A stretch of 64,000 bases of DNA from a virus: positions 1-64,000 of the IMG/VR virus record IMGVR_UViG_3300035694_000001. One strand, written 5' to 3'. A program made the translations under genes and the position numbers. How positions within the stretch are numbered: position 1 is the first letter of the stretch; each line of letters begins with the position of its first letter. The notes under the pieces are model-generated. The model was not told the origin of the DNA and made no database searches. It saw only the letters and a program-made list of their open reading frames with translations. Of the stretch, positions 3,072 through 53,587 are shown one piece after another.

Positions 3072-3290
3072 GACCGTTCCGATGGCCCAGGCGGCGCGCT
3101 CAGAGCTAAAGCGGGATTGCCTGCACTCGGTCCACACGCCGTCCAGCCGCCAGCCCTCGGCAAGCTCAATCTCGCCGCGCTCGACGGCACGGAGGACGTG
3201 AGATCGCAGCATGGCTTCGATCACGGGCGGGTCATCGAGAACGCAGAGCGGCACGAGGCAGGCGAATCGCAGAGGTTCCAAGGTGGTCAT
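3024..3290 (-). CDS. Hypothetical protein (leftward insert between terS and terL)
   Basis: ORF in a chain of overlapping leftward ORFs. Confidence 0.45.
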   Translation of the reverse strand: MTTLEPLRFACLVPLCVLDDPPVIEAMLRSHVLRAVERGEIELAEGWRLDGVWTECRQSRFSSERAAWAIGTVLGARQPGSPAGDIRD

Positions 3291-8871: not shown

Positions 8872-9447
8872 ATGGCTGACGAAGACACCAACAATGACGC
8901 CGAGGGCGGGCAAGACCAGCAGGATCCGTTAATTGGTGGGCATGATAAGCAGGGGCCGGCCGACACCAGCCGCCAAGACCATGAGGAAGATGTCAAACAA
9001 GAAGCCGAGGATAAAGGTAAGACACTTTCTCAAGCCGAGGTAGACAAGATTGTCGCTGAGCGCGTCGCGCGAGAGCGTAAGAAGTTCGCAGATTACGAGG
9101 ATCTGAAGAAGAAAGCCTCGGAGTACGACAAGTTCCAAGATAGTCAGAAGACTGAGCTGCAGAAGAAAGAAGATCAGATAGCGGCTCAAGCTATCGAACT
9201 GCAGAAATACAAGGTATCTGAAATCCGGCAAGCTGCGGCGAAGGCTGCTGGGCTTGATTCTGATTTGGCTGAGTTCATTACTGCAGCCGATCCGGGAGAA
9301 GCGGAAGAGCAGGCAAAGAAACTAGCTGAGCGGTTCAAAGCTTCAGCGAAGCAGCCTGACTTCAAACAAGGCGCCCGGCAGACTCCTCCTCCGCAGCGTT
9401 CTCGGGATGAATTGCTGCGCAATTTGGCGGGTTTCAGCAAACAGTAA
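8872..9447 (+). CDS. Capsid scaffolding protein
   Basis: Acidic N-terminus; TLSQAEVDKIVAERVARERKKFADYEDLKKKA; upstream of MCP. Confidence 0.92.
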   Translation: MADEDTNNDAEGGQDQQDPLIGGHDKQGPADTSRQDHEEDVKQEAEDKGKTLSQAEVDKIVAERVARERKKFADYEDLKKKASEYDKFQDSQKTELQKKEDQIAAQAIELQKYKVSEIRQAAAKAAGLDSDLAEFITAADPGEAEEQAKKLAERFKASAKQPDFKQGARQTPPPQRSRDELLRNLAGFSKQ

Positions 9448-11244: not shown

Positions 11245-12211
11245 GACAACCGCAGCCGCGTTTGCTAAGAAGCTGATCGATGATGGCCATCATGTCACGA
11301 TTCAACTCTCTATGCCGCATCCGATGTACGTTACAGGTCCTTACATGCATGAAGGTTCGGCAGTTTACCCGTATGTAGATCAGGCTGACCCGCTGCGATG
11401 GTTAGCGGCACCGGAAGGCAAGCCTGATTTGATAGTCACGTACTTGATGAATACACTGCGGGCCTCGATACTCGGTAAGATGCATGGCATCCCGGTAATA
11501 ACGCTTATGCACAATGATCACATGAAGAGCAGGCATGATCTGAAGCATGGCACGGATCTGGTAGTTTACAATACCGAGTGGATGAAAAAAGCTGTCGAGG
11601 ACTGGTATCGGGACTACCTCGGCGAACCGCCGCGCGGTATTGTCATTCGGCCACCCATCTTCCCAGCCCAGTACCGGGTAACCCCGCCTACCACAGCTAA
11701 AGGGCGTGTTACCCTAATTAATTTGTTTGAAGACAAAGGTTCCGAGATTTTTTATGCGCTGGCTGAGCGTTTCCCGCGCTTGAAGTTCCTTGGTGTTTGC
11801 GGGGCCTACGGCAAACAAGATGTACGGAAAATGCCCAACGTCGAGATTATCCCGCATGTAGCCGCTCACCACATGACCACCCAGGTCTACGCCCGGACGC
11901 GTGTGCTGCTCATGCCCTCGGTCTACGAGAGCTACGGCCGTGCCGGCGTCGAGGCAGCGTGTTCCGGCATCCCGACCATCGCTACGCCAACGCCGGGTCT
12001 GCGGGAAGCGCTGGGCGACGGCGGTGTGTTTGCTGAAGCCAATGACTTCAACGCATGGACAGCTGCGCTGGCGGTCCTCACGACGGCGAAGGGCTGGCTT
12101 GCCGCCTCAACGAGAGCGAAGCAGATACCCACTCGTCTCACGACTGAGGCTGACCTAGAGCGGTGGGCTGGGGCAGCACAACGAACGGCCCGCATGCCGG
12201 TCTTGACCTAG
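11189..12211 (+). CDS. Glycosyltransferase family 4 (GT-B)
   Basis: MRILFMVH..LP.H.AGAE; LLMPSVYESYGRAGVEAACSGIPTIATPTPGLREALG. Confidence 0.9.
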   Translation: MRILFMVHLWLPQHCAGAETTAAAFAKKLIDDGHHVTIQLSMPHPMYVTGPYMHEGSAVYPYVDQADPLRWLAAPEGKPDLIVTYLMNTLRASILGKMHGIPVITLMHNDHMKSRHDLKHGTDLVVYNTEWMKKAVEDWYRDYLGEPPRGIVIRPPIFPAQYRVTPPTTAKGRVTLINLFEDKGSEIFYALAERFPRLKFLGVCGAYGKQDVRKMPNVEIIPHVAAHHMTTQVYARTRVLLMPSVYESYGRAGVEAACSGIPTIATPTPGLREALGDGGVFAEANDFNAWTAALAVLTTAKGWLAASTRAKQIPTRLTTEADLERWAGAAQRTARMPVLT

Positions 12212-12220
12212 GAGGTTGCA

Positions 12221-12841
12221 ATGTCACTACCTCCGCTGATCGCACCAACAGATGTGGTCGCCCGGCTACCTTCCACCTATGTGATTGAGAATGCACGAGC
12301 TATAGCGCTTATTGCTGATGCCTCAGCGACTGCTCGGCGTATCTCCAAACAAGATTTCACAGTAAATCAGTCTACTGTAGGTATTCGCCCGGTCGGCTAC
12401 AGGCTTATTCTTCCGCAACGGCCAGTTATCTCAGTGGATAGTATTGCTATCAGATTGCCTAACAGTTCTTCATTGGTGACTATTCCCGGCTGGTACTGGG
12501 ATGGGTCGGATGAAGTATGGCTCACTGACGGCGGCTCGATTATCAACTTGGCTGAAGAAGTGCTGTTCGCTTTGCAGTGGCAGAGCCCAATGTGCTTTAC
12601 CACGTACACGCACGGGTATACAAGCATCCCTGATGATATCGTTGGGGTTGTGTGCTCGATGGTAATTCGTATTCTTACCGCCCCTGGCCTTGGCGGTGTG
12701 ATCTCAGAAACTGTGGGTGAGTACTCGTATCGCCTCTCGGATGCAGCGGCTCAGGGTACTATGGGTGTGACTGATGCCGAGAAGAAGATCCTAGAGTCTT
12801 ACCTGCCACGTCGGACATCAACCGCTGAATTGAGAGGGTAG
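12221..12841 (+). CDS. Head-to-tail adaptor
   Basis: DVVARL...ALIADASA.AR; YTHGY..IPDDIVGVVCSMVIR; SETVGEYSY. Confidence 0.85.
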   Translation: MSLPPLIAPTDVVARLPSTYVIENARAIALIADASATARRISKQDFTVNQSTVGIRPVGYRLILPQRPVISVDSIAIRLPNSSSLVTIPGWYWDGSDEVWLTDGGSIINLAEEVLFALQWQSPMCFTTYTHGYTSIPDDIVGVVCSMVIRILTAPGLGGVISETVGEYSYRLSDAAAQGTMGVTDAEKKILESYLPRRTSTAELRG

Positions 12842-12844
12842 AGA

Positions 12845-13066
12845 ATGAAGAGTGCCGAGATCAAGGGTTATCGGGAGCTGAGCGAAGATGATATTGAGTT
12901 GGTTAACCTGATCAAAGACGCTGAGATTCAAGTAGCTAAGGTATGGCGGGTAATCGAAAACAGAAGCGTTAGCGACCGACGTTGGGTGGCTATCGCTAAG
13001 ACACATTTTCAGGATGGTTTCATGGCATTGGTGCGTTCGGTTACGAAACCTGAGGATGTGTTCTAG
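12845..13066 (+). CDS. acb2: Acb2/Tad1-family cyclic-nucleotide sponge (anti-CBASS)
   Basis: IKGYRELS..DI.LVN.IK ... RWVAIAKTHFQDGFMALVRSVTKP..F matches the Acb2 N- and C-terminal signatures. Confidence 0.8.
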   Translation: MKSAEIKGYRELSEDDIELVNLIKDAEIQVAKVWRVIENRSVSDRRWVAIAKTHFQDGFMALVRSVTKPEDVF

Positions 13067-42983: not shown

Positions 42984-43023
42984 GTATATAGGAATCTAGC
43001 ATCCTAGCGTTACAGCTGTCAAG
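42984..43023 (-). promoter_or_regulatory. Leftward promoter TTGACA-18-TAGATT overlapping an operator variant
   Basis: Minus strand TTGACAGCTGTAACGCTAGGATGCTAGATTCCTATATAC. Confidence 0.75.
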
Positions 43024-43041
43024 CCCGGCAGGCTAGATTTT

Positions 43042-43430: not shown

Positions 43431-43478
43431 GCTATATAGGAACCTAGCAACCTTCGGCCAACCTGTCAAGCTCGACAG
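43431..43478 (-). promoter_or_regulatory. Leftward promoter TTGACA-17-TAGGTT with 16-bp operator over the -35
   Basis: CTGTCAAGCTCGACAG at 43463-43478. Confidence 0.75.
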
Positions 43479-43543: not shown

Positions 43544-43945
43544 TTACGCGGCGAGGTGGGCCAGCAGCTCAGGATTCTGCATCCGCCACGCCGAGATGGC
43601 TACCTCAGGTAGCCGACCGCGCTTGGCCAGCGCGTGGCCGTTCGCCTCGGCGTAGGCCCGGACTTCCTGTCGCTGCTCCTTCGTCAGACCTGAGCCGCCA
43701 GCCTCAACGGCAGCCGGGGCACTGGCGGGCTTGTTAGCCGAGCCCTTCGGCCGGCCGCGCTTGACCGCCCCAGCCGCCTTCCGGCCCTTCTCGAAGTAGA
43801 CGCCGAGAGCGTCTCGCAGCTCACCATGCTCAGCCTCGGTGAGGTCGATCTCGATAGCCGAGCCATCGAAGCTCAGCGTCACGCCGTGTGCGTCGGGGGC
43901 ATCGCTTAGGTCACTCAGGATGTCTACGGTTACCTTCTGCGCCAT
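43544..43945 (-). CDS. lsr2: Lsr2-family nucleoid-associated protein
   Basis: MAQKVTV..L.DL...V.LSFDG...EIDLT......LR.AL..Y...GRK; VRAYA..NG.....RGRLP. Confidence 0.92.
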   Translation of the reverse strand: MAQKVTVDILSDLSDAPDAHGVTLSFDGSAIEIDLTEAEHGELRDALGVYFEKGRKAAGAVKRGRPKGSANKPASAPAAVEAGGSGLTKEQRQEVRAYAEANGHALAKRGRLPEVAISAWRMQNPELLAHLAA

Positions 43946-44238
43946 GGGTGTTTGTCTCCTTTGTGAGTCGGATTTTTCTGATAAAGCCGTTGATACACCT
44001 AATAATATATTCTTGTCAACTCGCAAGGCGGCCCGCGCGGTGTCTAGTTTCTTGCTCGGCCTCTGGGTTTCCTTAGCCGCTATCGCGTTTCTGCTGGCAG
44101 GGACCTTGACGCTAGGCTTCTTGGGCCTAGCGCTAGCCCTTGGCCTCGCTGCCGCCGGTCGGGTGATCTGGCGGCGAAGCTGGTAGCCTAGCTGTACCGA
44201 TCCCTACGAGGCCGGTGCGGTGCCTGACAACACCAGAC

Positions 44239-44283
44239 AGAGCAGGGCCCCTAGGTACTCCGACCTGGGGGCCCTGCTCTTTG
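44239..44283. terminator. Intrinsic terminator hairpin
   Basis: AGAGCAGGGCCCC...GGGGCCCTGCTCTTT between convergent genes. Confidence 0.7.
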
Positions 44284-44288
44284 CTGTC

Positions 44289-44594
44289 TTACTCTCTCTC
44301 AGGCAGAGCTACCGGTCCTTCCTCAGGCAGGTGCGCCTTGCGCCATGCCTGATTTTTCGTCTTGCCGACCGCTGCGCCGACGCGCGCCCAGACATCTGAA
44401 TTTTGTGGTCGGTACTCCTGGTAGAGCCCGTGGTAAAGAGCCCTCAGCAGATACGGTGCTCGGGCTACAAGCTCTTCCAGGTTCGTCACAGCTTTGATCA
44501 AATCAGTTTCTCGATCATCACCTAACTCCCCTAGCACCTCACGCAGTGCATCGCTCTCCACGACGCCGTACGACACCACGTCTGGTCTGTCCAC
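44289..44594 (-). CDS. Small HTH protein divergent from the spd/traB operon (candidate repressor)
   Basis: C-terminal W.RVG.AVG.TK.QAW.K HTH-like segment. Confidence 0.55.
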   Translation of the reverse strand: MDRPDVVSYGVVESDALREVLGELGDDRETDLIKAVTNLEELVARAPYLLRALYHGLYQEYRPQNSDVWARVGAAVGKTKNQAWRKAHLPEEGPVALPERE

Positions 44595-44655
44595 TCGGTG
44601 CTTCTCCTATCTCCTGCAGGTTTGCATGGTCAGGGGCCCCAGTATGGCCTATCTA

Positions 44656-44685
44656 GTTGCAATTTCGCAACCGAAACTCTAGGCT
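44656..44685 (+). promoter_or_regulatory. Promoter TTGCAA-17-TAGGCT of the transfer operon, overlapped by inverted repeat GTTGC-N6-GCAAC
   Basis: Read directly from the sequence. Confidence 0.6.
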
Positions 44686-44816
44686 GTCGAGCACGGCGCC
44701 CTAGGGGGTGCCCGGCCAGTCGTCGGCCACGACAGGCCAGCCGCCTGGGATGTGCTCAGTCCCCGACCATCCCAGGCGGCGCCACCACAGGGGACAGGTA
44801 GGCAGGGCTGGTCTGG

Positions 44817-45707
44817 ATGACCACCGATCTCACGGCGTTGCAGCTCACCCGGCAAAAGGTCAATACCGGCATCTGGATTTGTGCTGCCCTAACCATGACT
44901 GCTTCGGCGATTTCGGGCGTTACGGCTTTTGTCTACCTGCAAAAAGACGGCTGGGGCATTGCTTCTGGGGCCATGACTGCCCTTGCGGTTGATGTCGCGC
45001 TGTGGGTGGCCTTGACCGGTGACCGGTTGATGGAAGCTATCGGCATCCCTTCTGGCCCCTGGGCTCGGGTAGTGCGCTGGGGCACGGCCGCGATGTCGGT
45101 CACCCTCAACATCACAGCGGCGGCCGTGGCCAACATCCCGGTTACGCTCAAAGTCCCACTGATCATCCTGCACGCCTTCGTACCGCTGATCATGGTGTCG
45201 CTGGCCGAGCTGCGCGGCGAGTATGCACAGCAGCTGGCGCCCGTCGAACGCGCGGCTCTCGCAGAGATAGAGGCCCAGGAGCGAGCTGCTGATACCCCGA
45301 TCGTTGCGCCATCCGAGCGAATCTCGGCTACTAGCGACCAGCTCGAAGCTCTGGGGCCGGCACTCGAAAGATCACAACGTCCGTTGGATCTAGGGCCCGC
45401 AGTTCCAACGGTAACGCCGTTTGCTTATAGGTCTGAGCACGTCGACAACCAATTTGCTCGCCCACGCTCTGACCAGCGGAAACACACTCGATCTTCTCGA
45501 GGACAACGCCCTGACCTGCGGGTTTCCACGCCGACTGGCCAGCCGGCTGTGCGCCGCTCGAACGTGCGAGATGCCGCGTTCGCCTGGCTCGACGCTCACC
45601 ACAGCCCCGACACCACCGCACGGAAGCTCGCCGAGGCCCTCAACGGATCCGAACACACCTGCAAAAAGTTGCTCGGCGAATGGCGCCGGCAGAAGGCGGC
45701 ATCATGA
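44817..45707 (+). CDS. Spd/DUF2637-like multi-TM spread protein with C-terminal HTH
   Basis: 4 TM segments (ALAVDVAL...R..RW.T..MSV.LN...LHA..PL.MV.LAE), low-complexity linker, TARKLAEAL.GSE..CKKLL. Confidence 0.7.
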   Translation: MTTDLTALQLTRQKVNTGIWICAALTMTASAISGVTAFVYLQKDGWGIASGAMTALAVDVALWVALTGDRLMEAIGIPSGPWARVVRWGTAAMSVTLNITAAAVANIPVTLKVPLIILHAFVPLIMVSLAELRGEYAQQLAPVERAALAEIEAQERAADTPIVAPSERISATSDQLEALGPALERSQRPLDLGPAVPTVTPFAYRSEHVDNQFARPRSDQRKHTRSSRGQRPDLRVSTPTGQPAVRRSNVRDAAFAWLDAHHSPDTTARKLAEALNGSEHTCKKLLGEWRRQKAAS

Positions 45708-47800
45708 CAATCACAGATATTCGACAGTTTCCTGAGGATCGTGCCCCCTGGTGGCGACGGTGGTTTGACCGCCAGCAGCCAGAAGCTCAGTACGGCGACG
45801 TAGTGAGCACTGAGGTAATCAAATGGGAAGGCTCGCCGGAGGAAGAGCCGAAGGGTTGGGCCTGGGTAGAAAAGCACGCGGTAAGCCTGCCGGACAAGCG
45901 GGCGGTCAAAGCCAAGCTCAAGCACGCGGCATCCAAAATGCCTGGCATCCTCGCCAAGCACATACTCGTTACGATTCCTAGAGGTATGTGGGCTGAGGTG
46001 GTTCAACCCACCTGGCGCGGCGCCGGCAAGTGCATGACGGCATATCACCACTGGGTTACCGCGATCCATCTCGATGAAGCGCAGAAAGTAGCTGAAGGAC
46101 CCCTCAAAGCTCGCACGTTGAAAGATCGACACAGCAGCCATGGGTACCGCATCTGGGCCTCGATCATCGCTGTGCTGTCGGCTGCCGGCGGCATGACGTA
46201 CCTCTACTACACCCAGCTCAACTACTTCTTTGCTGTCCTTATTGCCCTGGTTTGCATCCTCGATCTGATCGGCCGAGCCGGGCAGGAGAAGAAAGAAGAG
46301 TTTGTGCCGATCTACCGGGAGCCTCTCCGAGAGGGGATGCCCTACAAGCAGCTCACCGCGTCGATACAAAGCGCCTTCAACGAAATCATCGGGGTAGACG
46401 GCAACGGACACCCGTTGGTGCGAGTGGATGGCATCTGCTCATATGACTTCGATCGTGAAGAGTGGCGGCAGAATCTCTCCACTTTCCAAGAGATCAAAGA
46501 AGAGCATGTGCGGACACTGGAGCGGTCTATTGGCGCGGCACTTCGCTCGGTTCGCATCCTTGAAGTACCAGCCGTTGCCACTCGGCGGATTTTGAGCATC
46601 AAAAATGGGGATCCGTTCGTTGATGTTCCTGTGGCGCCTTGGCTACCAACCAAGTCGCAGAATATCGCAGATGGGCTTCTCCTTGGTAAGTCCCAGACTC
46701 CGATGCCGTACCGGGTGCATTTCGCCGGTGTGCATGTTGGTGTAGTCGGTGGCTCTGGTAGCGGTAAGAGCGAGGGCACTATTAGTGCGATTATCGAAGG
46801 AATACTCTCTTGCTATAATGCTGTGCCGGTTGGTATTGACCTTACTGAGGGGCCAATTTTCCCGATTTATGGTGACTGCATTCAGCGAGTCGCTTACACC
46901 CCGGAAGATGCGGACACACTTCTTGACTGGCTGCTTGCCGAGATCAAAGAACGTGCCAAGATTCTGGGCGATATCGCGCGCAGCAGTGACCCTAACGATA
47001 AGGGCCGCGAATGGAATGTTCACCTTGCTGCGAAGTACAACAAGCCCAGTGTCCATCTCATTGTGGACGAATCCCCACAGGCGATGAAATTTAATGGGCA
47101 GCCGAAGGGTACCATCAACCTTGCCGCTAAGCTGGAAGTAATCGCACGTACGGGCAGCAAGCATTGGGTGACCTTGGTTCTCGCCTCCCAGAAGACCGGC
47201 AAGTCCGATGCCGGCAGCACTGGTATTTCTTCACAGATCATGACTTGGCTCGTCGGCCCTTGCACCCAAGATGATGCTAATGAGATCTTCTCACCAGAGT
47301 TGCGGCGGGCCGGTTGGGCGCCGAACCTGCTTAAACCCGCCGTTCGGAACATCTCGAAGAATGATGCCGGGCGTGTTTATGTGAGCGCCGCTGGCTTTGG
47401 CCCTGACATTTGCATTAGCTGGACGCCTATGCCAGAACCAGAAATCAAACGTCGGCGAGACCAGCGGCTGATTGATGGGTTGCCTCGCATTACCAGCGGG
47501 GTTGGTTTCCCTGGGGACAGCAATACCGTAGAAGGCAAAGTAGTGCCGAATACCCTTTCAGCCTTGGCCGCCGCGCTCGATGATATTGAGCCCCCGGACG
47601 GCAAGCTGCCCAGCGCCATGGCTGCTGAATGGATCACTGAGCACAGCAATCAGGAAGTCGACGCCACGGAGCTGGCCAAGCAGCTGCGCGCCGAGCTGGG
47701 TGACCTCGCGCCGAGGGCCAAGAGCATGCGCAACAAGCTGCGAGGCAACTGCTCTTGCTACCTCGCAACCGACATCAACGACGCCATGGAGGCGCTATGA
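45704..47800 (+). CDS. traB: TraB-like FtsK/SpoIIIE conjugative DNA translocase
   Basis: N-terminal TM pair; HVGVVGGSGSGKS Walker A; HLIVDE Walker B; ARTGSK..VTLVLASQK; C-terminal wHTH-like region. Confidence 0.8.
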   Translation: MTITDIRQFPEDRAPWWRRWFDRQQPEAQYGDVVSTEVIKWEGSPEEEPKGWAWVEKHAVSLPDKRAVKAKLKHAASKMPGILAKHILVTIPRGMWAEVVQPTWRGAGKCMTAYHHWVTAIHLDEAQKVAEGPLKARTLKDRHSSHGYRIWASIIAVLSAAGGMTYLYYTQLNYFFAVLIALVCILDLIGRAGQEKKEEFVPIYREPLREGMPYKQLTASIQSAFNEIIGVDGNGHPLVRVDGICSYDFDREEWRQNLSTFQEIKEEHVRTLERSIGAALRSVRILEVPAVATRRILSIKNGDPFVDVPVAPWLPTKSQNIADGLLLGKSQTPMPYRVHFAGVHVGVVGGSGSGKSEGTISAIIEGILSCYNAVPVGIDLTEGPIFPIYGDCIQRVAYTPEDADTLLDWLLAEIKERAKILGDIARSSDPNDKGREWNVHLAAKYNKPSVHLIVDESPQAMKFNGQPKGTINLAAKLEVIARTGSKHWVTLVLASQKTGKSDAGSTGISSQIMTWLVGPCTQDDANEIFSPELRRAGWAPNLLKPAVRNISKNDAGRVYVSAAGFGPDICISWTPMPEPEIKRRRDQRLIDGLPRITSGVGFPGDSNTVEGKVVPNTLSALAAALDDIEPPDGKLPSAMAAEWITEHSNQEVDATELAKQLRAELGDLAPRAKSMRNKLRGNCSCYLATDINDAMEAL

Positions 47801-47897
47801 GAACCACAACGTCCGGCTCAACGGACGAACCCCTAGGGCTCAACCTTCAACGCTTGTTGAACCCCCCTGTTGAAGGCCTGGCGGGCTCTAAGACTCC

Positions 47898-48027
47898 TGG
47901 GGTTGTCCGGGTATCCGTGCAGGGGTCGAGGGGCCCCAGGGGTCATCAGCAGGGGTACTCAGCAGGAGGGGTCAAGGGGTCATGCACGTCTGGGTAGGGG
48001 TCTTGCTGTTCTTGGGGGCATGGGGTC
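47898..48027. repeat. clt-like cluster of AGGGGTC (minus strand GACCCCT) direct repeats
   Basis: Exact copies at 47921, 47938, 47967, 47975, 47996; variants at 47898, 47929, 47951, 48021; immediately 3' of traB. Confidence 0.6.
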
Positions 48028-48188
48028 TTCACATCTGGAACAAACCCTATGTGACCTGCTCACACTGTGGAGGGTCAAAGCGTGAGTACGCCGCAGACGG
48101 GGTGCACTTCAGCGAGGAGGAGTGCTTCTGGTGCTACGAGAACGGCTACCGCTACCGCTGGGAGTTGAGGTGGTTGACCCTCTTCTAA
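47982..48188 (+). CDS. Small membrane-anchored Zn-finger protein
   Basis: TM segment then PYVTCSHCGGS...CFWC..NGYR.RW. Confidence 0.65.
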   Translation: MHVWVGVLLFLGAWGLHIWNKPYVTCSHCGGSKREYAADGVHFSEEECFWCYENGYRYRWELRWLTLF

Positions 48189-48196
48189 ATGACCCC

Positions 48197-48235
48197 CTGT
48201 CGAGCTTGACAGGTGCCTAGGTGTCCGGCTACGTT
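48197..48235 (+). promoter_or_regulatory. Rightward promoter TTGACA-18-TACGTT with 16-bp operator
   Basis: CTGTCGAGCTTGACAG at 48197-48212. Confidence 0.7.
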
Positions 48236-48252
48236 GTTACTAGGTTCCTAGT

Positions 48253-48564
48253 ATGTTGAAGATCGGAGAAGCCATGAAGCTCAGAATGCCCGTTATCGCC
48301 TATGCGGTAGCTCGTACCGGGGCGCGTCGAGTGATCACTGCCTTGGGGGCCTTGGGCCTCAACGTCCGGGATAGCTTCGTGGGCCTCGGCAGCAACGTCC
48401 GGCCCTGGAAGCGCGCGGCCATGTGGATCTGCCTTGCCCTGAACTTGGTGCTTGCTTTTGCGCTCGCAACGCGCGGCAACGTCGTGAGCTTCATGGCCTT
48501 GCTCGGCTGCTGCACCGCTCTTAACTACCTCGACAGCACGATGCCCAGAAAGGTTAGGCCATGA
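48253..48564 (+). CDS. Membrane protein
   Basis: Two TM segments. Confidence 0.55.
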   Translation: MLKIGEAMKLRMPVIAYAVARTGARRVITALGALGLNVRDSFVGLGSNVRPWKRAAMWICLALNLVLAFALATRGNVVSFMALLGCCTALNYLDSTMPRKVRP

Positions 48565-49602: not shown

Positions 49603-49809
49603 ATGGGATTTTGGACTGGCGATTATGGACGAGCAGATCAGTACGTTAATGGAGCCGCTGCACAGAATGGGCACTATAGCGTAGATACGCACGTTGCTCG
49701 GCAATGCCAAGACAGTGATAATAAGAATCAACGAAAGGATCGTGTCACATCAGCAGTGCACGACGCGGTACAGAAAACTTCAGGGCTTTTAGACTGGTTG
49801 AGTAAATAA
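49603..49809 (+). CDS. Hypothetical protein
   Basis: GAGGTG RBS. Confidence 0.55.
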   Translation: MGFWTGDYGRADQYVNGAAAQNGHYSVDTHVARQCQDSDNKNQRKDRVTSAVHDAVQKTSGLLDWLSK

Positions 49810-50789
49810 TGATGGGTCACGGGCACGGCTCCTTCGGCCTCTTCGCTGGCCTCGCTGTCGGAGATGCTCTGTCCTTGCCGCCGGCTGCCGTGATAACCCT
49901 TGGCCTTGCTAGCGCAGGAGCCGGGTTGCTGCCCGATATCGACTGCAAGGGGTCCACGGCCGCTACCGCTTTCGGCCCGTTCTCTCAGTTTGCGCACTAC
50001 GGTGCCATCGAGCTGCACAATGTCGTCTCAGCCTCGATCAGCACTGACCGGCATGAGCACGGCGCGCACCGGGGCTTAACCCACTGGTGGCCTTTCTGGG
50101 TGGTGTGCGGTGGCGCTGTGTGGGCTCTGTGCACGATCAACCAGTGGGTTGTGATGGCGGTGCTGGCCCTGCTGTTCGCGCTCGCAGCGCGGGGCCTCAC
50201 TATCCCCGATCTGCCAGCCGAGACGCAGGGTCGTTTCAACAACTCTCCCCGCCACCACATGATGATGAAACTCGCCTACGGCCTGCTCAATCTCAACCCC
50301 TTTACCTTCATCATGCGGCGCGGCCGGAAACACGTAGCCAAGACGCGGCGCCTCGGCTGGGCACGGTTGGGTTTCCGGTTTGGCGTCGGCAAGGTCTTGA
50401 CCGCAGCGGCGGCCAGCGCACTGGCTTACGGACTCGTAGCGGCCGGCGTCGCAGCCACCATCGGTCCGTGGCTCGGGCTCATTGTTGGCCTGGGGATGGC
50501 GTTGCATTGGTTCGGTGATTGCCCGACGCATATGGGTGTTCCTGGTATTAAACTTCATCAAGTGTGGAAGCTTCCGTTTTGGGCTTCATTCTATGCCGGC
50601 GGTCCGTTCGAGATCATGGCCATCTGGTTCAGCCTCGGGTGGCTCAATATCGTGTTGATTCCCGGACTACTCAGCCACGCACATGAGATGACCGTGTTGA
50701 TTTGGGCAACTTCTGCACTCGCAGTACTGATAGTCCTTGCTATCATTGTTGAAGCAACTAGTGTCGTTAAACGAAAGAGGTACGTATAA
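49809..50789 (+). CDS. YdjM-like membrane metal-dependent hydrolase
   Basis: MMGHGH, LLPDID, HRGLTHW, LHWFGD.PT..GVP; multiple TM segments. Confidence 0.85.
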   Translation: MMGHGHGSFGLFAGLAVGDALSLPPAAVITLGLASAGAGLLPDIDCKGSTAATAFGPFSQFAHYGAIELHNVVSASISTDRHEHGAHRGLTHWWPFWVVCGGAVWALCTINQWVVMAVLALLFALAARGLTIPDLPAETQGRFNNSPRHHMMMKLAYGLLNLNPFTFIMRRGRKHVAKTRRLGWARLGFRFGVGKVLTAAAASALAYGLVAAGVAATIGPWLGLIVGLGMALHWFGDCPTHMGVPGIKLHQVWKLPFWASFYAGGPFEIMAIWFSLGWLNIVLIPGLLSHAHEMTVLIWATSALAVLIVLAIIVEATSVVKRKRYV

Positions 50790-53549: not shown

Positions 53550-53587
53550 CTGTCTAGCTAGGCAGGCACTACTGTCGAGCTAGACAG
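53550..53587. promoter_or_regulatory. Two tandem operator copies (CTGTCTAGCTAGGCAG, CTGTCGAGCTAGACAG)
   Basis: Intergenic; match the 16-bp palindrome. Confidence 0.65.

Follow-up and report, generated by a model that had tools for sequence, protein, structure and literature searches.

What does a tailed phage do with a gene block that resembles the DNA-transfer cassette of a Streptomyces plasmid? This question is raised by positions 44289-48188 of the stretch of DNA analysed here, a 64,000-nucleotide window (hereafter the window) that comprises the first 64 kb of the 95,770-bp IMG/VR virus record IMGVR_UViG_3300035694_000001. Streptomyces plasmids move double-stranded DNA between hyphae with one FtsK-like protein and a locus of short repeats. 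An earlier interpretation made from the letters without database searches, the sequence-only reading, had proposed that the block is a module of this kind, resident in a virion-encoding phage, and that the phage may be transmitted both in virions and by TraB-mediated transfer of its circular genome between hyphae. Every feature listed there was found again, at or near the position reported for it. We give about an even chance to the view that the block is a native DNA-translocation cassette of the TraB-clt type, by which replicating phage DNA would spread, independently of virions, from compartment to compartment or between touching hyphae while an infection is under way.

The central gene of the block (45704-47800, plus strand) encodes a TraB-like, FtsK-fold translocase of 698 amino acids predicted to act on double-stranded DNA, which consists of an N-terminal domain, a membrane anchor, a linker domain, a motor with Walker A and Walker B motifs and a C-terminal domain of helices and strands. 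An alignment of 14 homologues places the true start at 45704 (MTITD) and not at 45680, and the ATG of the gene therefore overlaps the stop codon of the preceding gene, which codes for a membrane protein with about four transmembrane helices. The Walker motifs read GGSGSGKS and HLIVDE. One long hydrophobic segment, at residues 167-194, is kept in the family and was modelled as part of long helices (residues 141-200), in agreement with the membrane association that characterizes TraB-type translocases. The AlphaFold model, for which 14 homologues were used, is good in the motor (220-500) and in the C-terminal domain (620-706); the latter shows block-mean values of the predicted local distance difference test (pLDDT) of ~71-92 and an order of helices and strands compatible with a winged helix. 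Foldseek ranked the FtsK motor on double-stranded DNA first (6t8b, 6t8g and 2iut, E about 1e-12, TM-scores of 0.55-0.61 on the target), followed by the conjugation coupling protein TcpA and then by EccC/EssC. With its RecA-like motor, Walker A and B motifs and FtsK alpha/beta fold, the protein falls into the FtsK/SpoIIIE-HerA superfamily, and it also matches the FtsK/SpoIIIE-like family of PHROG (2e-9). Fold, Walker motifs and hydrophobic segment hence bear out the membrane-anchored FtsK-type ATPase that had been proposed. It is not a canonical member of the FtsK or EccC families or of TraB as defined by NCBIfam; its relationship to EccC was judged through NCBIfam and Foldseek ranks only.

The relatives of the ATPase lead to plasmids. 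An exhaustive, profile-free search returned 209 cluster representatives at E <=0.001. A family profile of 41 sequences, compared by hhalign, aligned with a 701-aa protein of a 61.5-kb plasmid of S. olivoreticuli (E 4e-42), with a 'DNA translocase FtsK' of a 53-kb Kitasatospora plasmid (E 1.5e-37) and with a 792-aa protein of an 85-kb S. violaceus plasmid (E 7e-35). All three alignments begin in the membrane segment, run to the last residues and comprise about 500 columns, and the C-terminal domain of the phage protein is aligned with the C-termini of its plasmid relatives. On the S. violaceus and Kitasatospora plasmids the ATPase is preceded, in a tra-like operon, by a divergent GntR regulator, small open reading frames and a DUF2637-type membrane protein (a sub-threshold match in the S. 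violaceus plasmid); the Kitasatospora plasmid has an RRQRL zinc-binding protein between the DUF2637 protein and the ATPase, and on the S. olivoreticuli plasmid the genes that precede the ATPase carry no annotation. Searches for capsid and portal genes gave no match on any of the three plasmids. Just 3' of the tra-like operon on the S. violaceus plasmid (NZ_CP107912.1, about 11871-12858 of locus L008) lie genes for WhiB, GGDEF-domain and Lsr2 proteins, the last of which recalls the Lsr2 gene that adjoins the cassette in the phage.

The window ATPase and its phage relatives form a well-supported clade in a quick maximum-likelihood tree. The larger group around this clade contains the three plasmid proteins and an FtsK-like protein of cluster BE Streptomyces phages, apart from E. 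coli FtsK; the deep order of the tree is unreliable owing to the long branches of pIJ101 Tra and E. coli FtsK, which join each other. No relative was found when bacterial genome contigs were scanned with the ATPase and its alignment (A1), and searches with single distant representatives gave no viral loci. The identification as TraB holds insofar as the nearest identifiable relatives lie in tra-like operons of Streptomycetaceae plasmids, but the similarity to pIJ101 Tra is limited to the motor and the NCBIfam model of TraB is not reached.

Directly after the ATPase gene, where the sequence-only reading had noted a cluster of direct repeats resembling a clt locus, such a cluster is indeed present in the sequence. 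Five exact and three one-mismatch copies of AGGGGTC, all in the same orientation, occupy 107 bp (47921-48027, plus strand) 120-230 bp after the ATPase stop and reach into the start of the next gene, which encodes a small zinc-ribbon protein. The whole genome holds 16 exact copies on both strands, and other 150-bp windows contain at most one exact copy per strand. The cluster has the sequence hallmark of a clt locus, short direct repeats near traB, with repeats of 7 nt compared to 8 bp in the definition.

Comparison with other phages and with the plasmids shows that the position of the array is conserved and its motif variable. Among the loci of relatives, five of which were examined, those in three phage contigs (L001, L006 and L004) have an ATPase with 73, 61 and 51% identity to that of the window, respectively. 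The repeated word is AGGGGTC in the window and in L001, GGGGTAC/T mixed with AGGGGTC in L006, and GAGTACTC / GGTACTC in L004, and in all three relatives the array runs into the start of the zinc-ribbon gene. The window and L001 have a near-identical C-terminal segment of the ATPase; in L006 this segment is altered, and in L004 it contains an insertion. Arrays also follow the ATPase genes of the three plasmids (four copies of CCGGAAC, three of CCGTCCG and six of CCTGTTCC). A temperate phage (L005, 3628-8082, IMGVR_UViG_3300049001_000029, 69 kb) carries five copies of CCGGCACA 370-440 bp 3' of its ATPase gene. On a 94-kb contig with a phage portal (L018/L019, 9446-9650, IMGVR_UViG_3300025898_000004), 10-11 copies of CGGGACA(C) in both orientations follow the gene of a distant FtsK-like protein with 26% identity in the motor. 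No array follows the FtsK-like gene of phage Jay2Jay at a threshold of at least four copies of a 7-8-mer. The array of the window is thus statistically exceptional, and its counterparts in the three related contigs keep the place and change the word.

These observations are consistent with a mechanism in which the membrane-anchored ATPase, presumably as a hexamer, would dock with its C-terminal domain on the co-oriented heptamers just downstream of its own gene and pump double-stranded phage DNA through the membrane or a septal pore. The same parts might also serve segregation, with pump and array moving or holding phage DNA across sporulation septa so that genomes become trapped in spores as a carrier state. 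The FtsK fold and the logic of sequence-directed loading would be the same, which mirrors the clearing of closing septa by chromosomal FtsK/SpoIIIE, and in papers on Streptomyces phages, host development has been linked with the FtsK-like and WhiB-like genes that phages carry (PMC13587820). Outside the array, however, AGGGGTC shows no strand skew (4 copies on the plus and 7 on the minus strand), unlike the guidance by FtsK-orienting polar sequences (KOPS), and a KOPS-like, genome-wide skew of the motif was rejected. Since the nearest relatives of the ATPase are moreover found in plasmid tra-like operons and not in division loci, we regard a role in segregation as improbable.

An ATPase directed at the host has to be weighed as well. 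It could act in takeover, in blocking incoming DNA or plasmids or in interference with division, and the repeats would then be an unrelated site, such as a regulator array or iterons. This would fit the PHROGs category of phage FtsK/SpoIIIE-like proteins ('moron, auxiliary metabolic gene and host takeover'), the overlap of the array with the start of the zinc-ribbon gene, 170 bp from a promoter/operator, and the presence in the cassette of two other possible DNA binders, the four-transmembrane protein with its helix-turn-helix (HTH)-like segment and the small divergent protein. However, the succession of ATPase gene and array is seen again in plasmids and phages with other neighbouring genes, the motif shifts together with the ATPase C-terminus, and the replication genes lie 15-30 kb away from the cassette. 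We therefore consider a host-directed function unlikely, though it keeps an appreciable weight.

A second repeat cluster is located between the ATPase gene and the heptamer array. Five copies of the pentamer TCAAC/GTTGA, in convergent arrangement, lie at 47818-47873 (cluster 47810-47880, no strand assigned), and the 110-bp windows from 47761 and 47771, with six copies each, are the densest of the genome (0.02% of windows reach this number). L001 has six copies at the matching position (3156-3219). The pentamer is unchanged in relatives whose heptamer differs. Judged from the sequence, this cluster may bind another protein of the cassette.

If the ATPase acts as a pump, the two membrane proteins encoded on either side of it, the first of them by a translationally coupled gene, may be its partners at the membrane. 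The upstream gene (44817-45707, plus strand), whose stop codon overlaps the ATPase start in the sequence ATGA, encodes the protein with about four transmembrane helices, with hydrophobic stretches at residues 21-39, 47-66 and 99-134. Its 45 homologue clusters are all metagenomic, several of them on contigs of 86-102 kb, and the family alignment shows conservation of the membrane part and of the last 45 residues, with a variable linker in between. The conserved C-terminal, HTH-like segment weakly resembles the KfrA_N HTH in 8 of 19 homologues, with a best E of 3.6e-4 that does not reach the cut-off. The protein matches phrog_25954 (4.6e-9), and an Atlas feature score of 0.89-0.90 with DUF2637 clusters provides a lead only, the Pfam family DUF2637 (PF10935) being matched by none of the 19 homologues. 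The downstream gene (47982-48188, plus strand) is an open reading frame for a small protein of 68 aa with a hydrophobic N-terminus and a zinc ribbon of the CxxC...CxxC type. Its counterparts are present in L001, L004, L005 and L006, and its best Pfam resemblance, to GRXCR1-2_C (9.7e-5), is below the cut-off.

Several results weigh against the interpretation as a TraB-clt cassette. The ATPase scores 18.3 bits (E 1.7e-3) with Pfam FtsK_SpoIIIE (PF01580), under the gathering threshold of 24 bits, which the plasmid relatives also fail to reach. Its best and sole noteworthy NCBIfam match, plasmid_TraB (NF041214), has 27.9 bits (E 8e-7) compared to a cut-off of 800 bits; as the experimentally proven pIJ101 Tra does not match this model either, the model covers part of the TraB diversity and a failure to reach it says little. 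The similarity to pIJ101 Tra (E 2.7e-10) is no closer than that to E. coli FtsK (E 1.2e-11), both being restricted to the motor, and the plasmid relatives are unstudied proteins that are called transfer genes by context only. Folded alone, the C-terminal domain gave a pLDDT of 60 and no fold match, so that its description as a winged helix is based on secondary structure and alignment. The covariation of array motif and ATPase C-terminus, with three motif classes only, is suggestive, and the array could serve another DNA-binding protein, given its overlap with a gene start and its vicinity to a promoter. For the membrane partners, hhalign comparisons of the four-transmembrane protein with pIJ101 SpdB, the Kitasatospora DUF2637 protein and the neighbour of the S. 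olivoreticuli ATPase gave probabilities of <1%. The label 'Spd-like' had to be abandoned as a statement of homology, as neither SpdB nor DUF2637 shows profile similarity; what is left of it is topology and gene position. A label of the zinc-ribbon protein as RRQRL-like was rejected in the same way, since no RRQRL homology was detectable and the spacing of the CxxC motifs is all that is common to both. Finally, a mycelial host is what we infer for a virus of metagenomic origin.

The cassette appears to be controlled separately. A small gene on the opposite strand (44289-44594, minus) is the candidate regulator; its open reading frame encodes 101 aa with counterparts in L004 (34% identity) and L006 (66%). 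The protein matched no family in Pfam, PHROG or NCBIfam, and an Atlas search returned HTH_23 clusters at 0.82-0.86, a weak lead only. On the divergent side, a promoter-like site (44656-44685, plus strand) is formed by the palindrome GTTGCAATTTCGCAAC (44656-44671), which lies over a -35-like TTGCAA and is followed after 17 nt by TAGGCT. L004 has another palindrome at the matching position, before GAAACTGTAGTAT. The -10 region GAAACTnTAG is common to the window and L004 despite their differing promoter palindromes. A leader hairpin with perfect 13-bp stems (44740-44752 and 44768-44780, plus strand) and a 15-nt loop precedes the gene of the four-transmembrane protein, and a hairpin of different sequence occupies the matching place in L004 (about 9075-9115). 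Palindrome and hairpin thus keep their positions at differing sequences, which suggests a conserved regulatory structure.

With its position and the palindromic promoter, the small divergent gene is compatible with a role as regulator, and both elements might restrain expression of the cassette. The divergent HTH repressor proposed earlier is confirmed in its arrangement, with divergent gene and palindromic promoter in place, but not in its identity: a GntR-family divergent regulator, as in the TraR/KorA class, was not found, nor was any other family matched, and the HTH is unproven. 'Repressor' is hence a label of position and topology, not of homology. An inverted repeat just 3' of this gene (44239-44280, no strand assigned; 18 bp, 94% complementary, 6-nt loop) is likely its terminator. 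A scan for consensus promoters and terminators was uninformative for this GC-rich actinophage.

Is the cassette part of the phage at all? The sequence-only reading had regarded it as resident and not co-assembled, and this is corroborated by the related phages. In L001, L004 and L006 the order of the block is syntenic, with the genes for Lsr2, the small protein, the four-transmembrane protein, the ATPase and the zinc-ribbon protein and, further on, a YdjM-like gene. The contig of L004 (G003) has a portal protein 76% identical to that of the window, compared to 51% for the ATPase and 44% for the four-transmembrane protein. Synteny and portal identity indicate that the block was inherited with the phage, and by these identities the cassette appears to evolve much faster than the virion genes.

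A separately integrated actinomycete integrative and conjugative element (AICE) or plasmid fragment, or a mis-join in the assembly, would be the alternative. The presence of the ATPase family beside an integrase could be taken in its favour: in L005, the ATPase of the same clade (35% identity) is encoded ~1.5 kb from a tyrosine integrase gene. L005 is itself a phage, however, with HK97 capsid and terminase. In the present record, neither an integrase nor an att-like feature was detected, and the combination that defines an AICE, with integrase, att sites and a Rep gene by the transfer genes, was not found, integrase and recombinase domains being absent from the whole record. At 56.5%, the GC content is uniform over the locus and matches the surrounding genome; the gene order from Lsr2 to YdjM is kept at 51-73% ATPase identity, including one contig with a portal of 76% identity; and the phage's own operator element borders the block here and in the relatives. 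The reading as AICE or mis-join was rejected because of the missing integrase or att-like feature and the conserved synteny, and we consider an artefact or passenger of any kind highly improbable.

What kind of phage carries the cassette bears on its possible use. The record is rated 100% complete by CheckV. Its left arm encodes a siphovirus virion set of large terminase (TerL), portal, protease, major capsid protein, a tape measure protein of 1,299 aa and endolysin, and its right third encodes DNA polymerase, primase/polymerase, helicase, exonuclease, methyltransferases and topoisomerase. The nearest cultured relative is Streptomyces phage Samy (terminase 63%, portal 41%), followed by Gordonia phages of 90-100 kb. 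The Lsr2 gene marks the phage as an actinophage. By tblastn the ATPase matched 56 of 50,697 phage records, all of Streptomyces phages, and gave 7 hits in 72,556 plasmid records; that phage and plasmid matches are all from Streptomyces or Kitasatospora is the best available clue to the host. A nucleotide search with 44000-48400 against the 50,697 phage records gave no match. Domain searches of the whole record, in which control genomes were positive each time, found no tyrosine integrase (Phage_integrase), no serine recombinase or resolvase (Recombinase, Resolvase), no ParB (ParB_N) and no ParA of the CbiA type. The genome hence looks like that of a virulent actinomycete siphovirus lineage, in which genes for lysogeny or plasmid maintenance were not detected.

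This bears on a dual life in the manner of pZL12. The Streptomyces plasmid-phage pZL12/phage ZL12 (Zhong et al. 2010, J Bacteriol 192:3747) is reported to form virions and to conjugate; it is a virion-encoding element of ~90 kb with a tra locus, a major tra gene and adjacent genes, for conjugal transfer, and its replication is that of a plasmid, with ParA/ParB. The comparison is one of descriptions and not of sequences. By analogy, the present phage could persist as a circular plasmid prophage that is conjugated by a TraB-like pump from a stable donor to recipient hyphae. The anatomy of the cassette would fit, and an exact overlap of 127 bp between the ends of the record (1-127 and 95644-95770) would agree with a circular genome or one with terminal redundancy. 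On the other hand, 127 bp is a common assembler k-mer length; most likely the ends overlap because the assembly is circular or circularly permuted, and a terminal repeat of biological origin is the less probable explanation. The overlap points to no more than an assembly that is circular or terminally redundant, and is uninformative on a plasmid state. Of the two components of a phage-plasmid of the pZL12 type, the virion genes are present and plasmid partition genes (ParA/ParB) were not matched. As the complete record lacks ParA, ParB and both classes of recombinase, and has a DNA polymerase, primase, helicase and exonuclease of its own, as do lytic actinophages, we regard this alternative as improbable.

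Taken together, the missing integrase and partition genes and the phage's own replication genes favour spread during infection over mating from a stable plasmid state. The two routes of transmission envisaged in the sequence-only reading are affected differently: a virion-independent route is plausible, but plasmid-like conjugation of a circular genome is unsupported. In the TraB-clt reading, replicating phage DNA would pass hyphal cross-walls or enter touching hyphae while the infection proceeds. In its fullest form, which we put forward tentatively and as falling somewhat short of an even chance, this would mean that a virulent tailed phage pushes its replicating genome through cross-walls or into touching hyphae with a TraB-clt pump derived from plasmids, and takes many compartments before lysis.

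At its borders the block is set into the transcriptional organization of the phage. An operator/promoter element, CTGTCnAGCTnGACAG, overlapping a TTGACA box, lies on the left at 43461-43478 (minus strand), directing leftward transcription, and a second copy on the right at 48197-48214 (plus strand), directing rightward transcription; the two are perfect reverse complements (100% complementary). The 16-bp operator previously noted on both sides of the module was thus found at 43463 and 48197. As both copies face outward, away from the block, the cassette lies between two phage transcription units and has its own promoter. The near-palindromic 16-bp element sits on TTGACA boxes at several gene-block boundaries. 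Further copies are found at 1705-1720, 53550-53565 and 53572-53587, with a weak one at 43016-43031, and in L001, L004 and L006 a copy is located after the cassette as well. Some phage regulator probably uses the element as its operator. The left neighbour of the cassette is the gene of an Lsr2-like nucleoid-associated protein (43544-43945, minus strand; Pfam Lsr2 5.6e-13 and Lsr2_DNA-bd, phrog_1223 1.5e-17), which adjoins the cassette also in L004 and L006. Further downstream, at 49809-50789, lies a gene for a 326-aa hydrolase-like membrane protein of the YdjM family (Pfam 1.8e-12). L001, L004 and L006 have this gene after the cassette too, with identities of 58-79%.

Among the known systems, TraB-clt of the Streptomyces plasmids pSVH1 and pIJ101 is the closest in design. 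Its clt regions contain 8-bp direct repeats, which the cognate TraB recognises through its C-terminus, and spreading within the mycelium of the recipient is likewise driven by TraB acting with Spd proteins (PMC4447253). Both systems have one FtsK-like ATPase that is associated with the membrane and ends in a domain for DNA recognition (a predicted one here), short direct repeats near its gene, the gene of a four-transmembrane partner and a divergent regulator gene (PMC4447253; pIJ101 map). The phage locus differs in its 7-mers, a regulator that is not of the GntR type, a partner that is not detectably SpdB-like and a similarity to pIJ101 Tra confined to the motor, and its carrier is a complete tailed-phage genome, not a conjugative plasmid or AICE. 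For SpdB2 homologues of phiC31 and VWB, a spread of phage DNA within the mycelium has been the subject of published speculation (PMC4447253). The present locus gives this speculation concrete parts, namely a pump, a candidate docking array that varies with the pump C-terminus and two conserved proteins as its putative partners at the membrane. If the TraB-clt reading is correct, a bacterial virus would have a virion-independent route from cell to cell with a rapidly co-evolving pair of pump and docking site. Infection spread, burst size and plaque formation in multicellular bacteria would then have to be understood differently, and phages would move DNA by a further route, one that assays based on virions fail to detect.

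With chromosomal FtsK/SpoIIIE and their sequences KOPS and SpoIIIE recognition sequences (SRS), the ATPase has in common the motor fold, the membrane anchor and, as predicted here, sequence-directed loading by the C-terminus; unlike them, it does not match FtsK_gamma, and its motif is clustered at one locus instead of being skewed along the genome. The lytic cluster BE Streptomyces phages (Jay2Jay gp111) likewise combine an FtsK-like ATPase with a large, lytic-looking phage genome, fall into the same broad tree group and, with 56 records, are the sole phage match by tblastn, although the identity is about 25% over the C-terminal 42% of the protein and the neighbouring genes differ. 'FtsK-like DNA translocase' is a routine annotation in many Streptomyces phages with no role assigned, and for the protein of the BE phages there is no published function. 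A full-text literature search returned no paper on a TraB-clt pair in phages beyond pZL12.

By sequence, the plasmids NZ_CP129916.1, NZ_CP115453.1 and NZ_CP107912.1 are the most instructive comparison. They have in common with the phage an ATPase homologous from the membrane segment to the C-terminus and an array after its gene, two of them also a membrane protein gene upstream and one a small zinc-binding protein gene beside the ATPase. They differ in an ATPase identity of about 22-25%, in giving no capsid or portal match, and in the GntR and DUF2637-type genes of two (one sub-threshold) and the RRQRL gene of one, none of which is detectable in the phage cassette. Compared with all of these systems, what is new here is the occurrence of a plasmid-type pump with a putative docking array in a virulent-looking phage lineage, together with natural variants of its apparent specificity, and such pairs of array and C-terminus, if they function as proposed, would provide natural specificity variants for how FtsK-type pumps read DNA.

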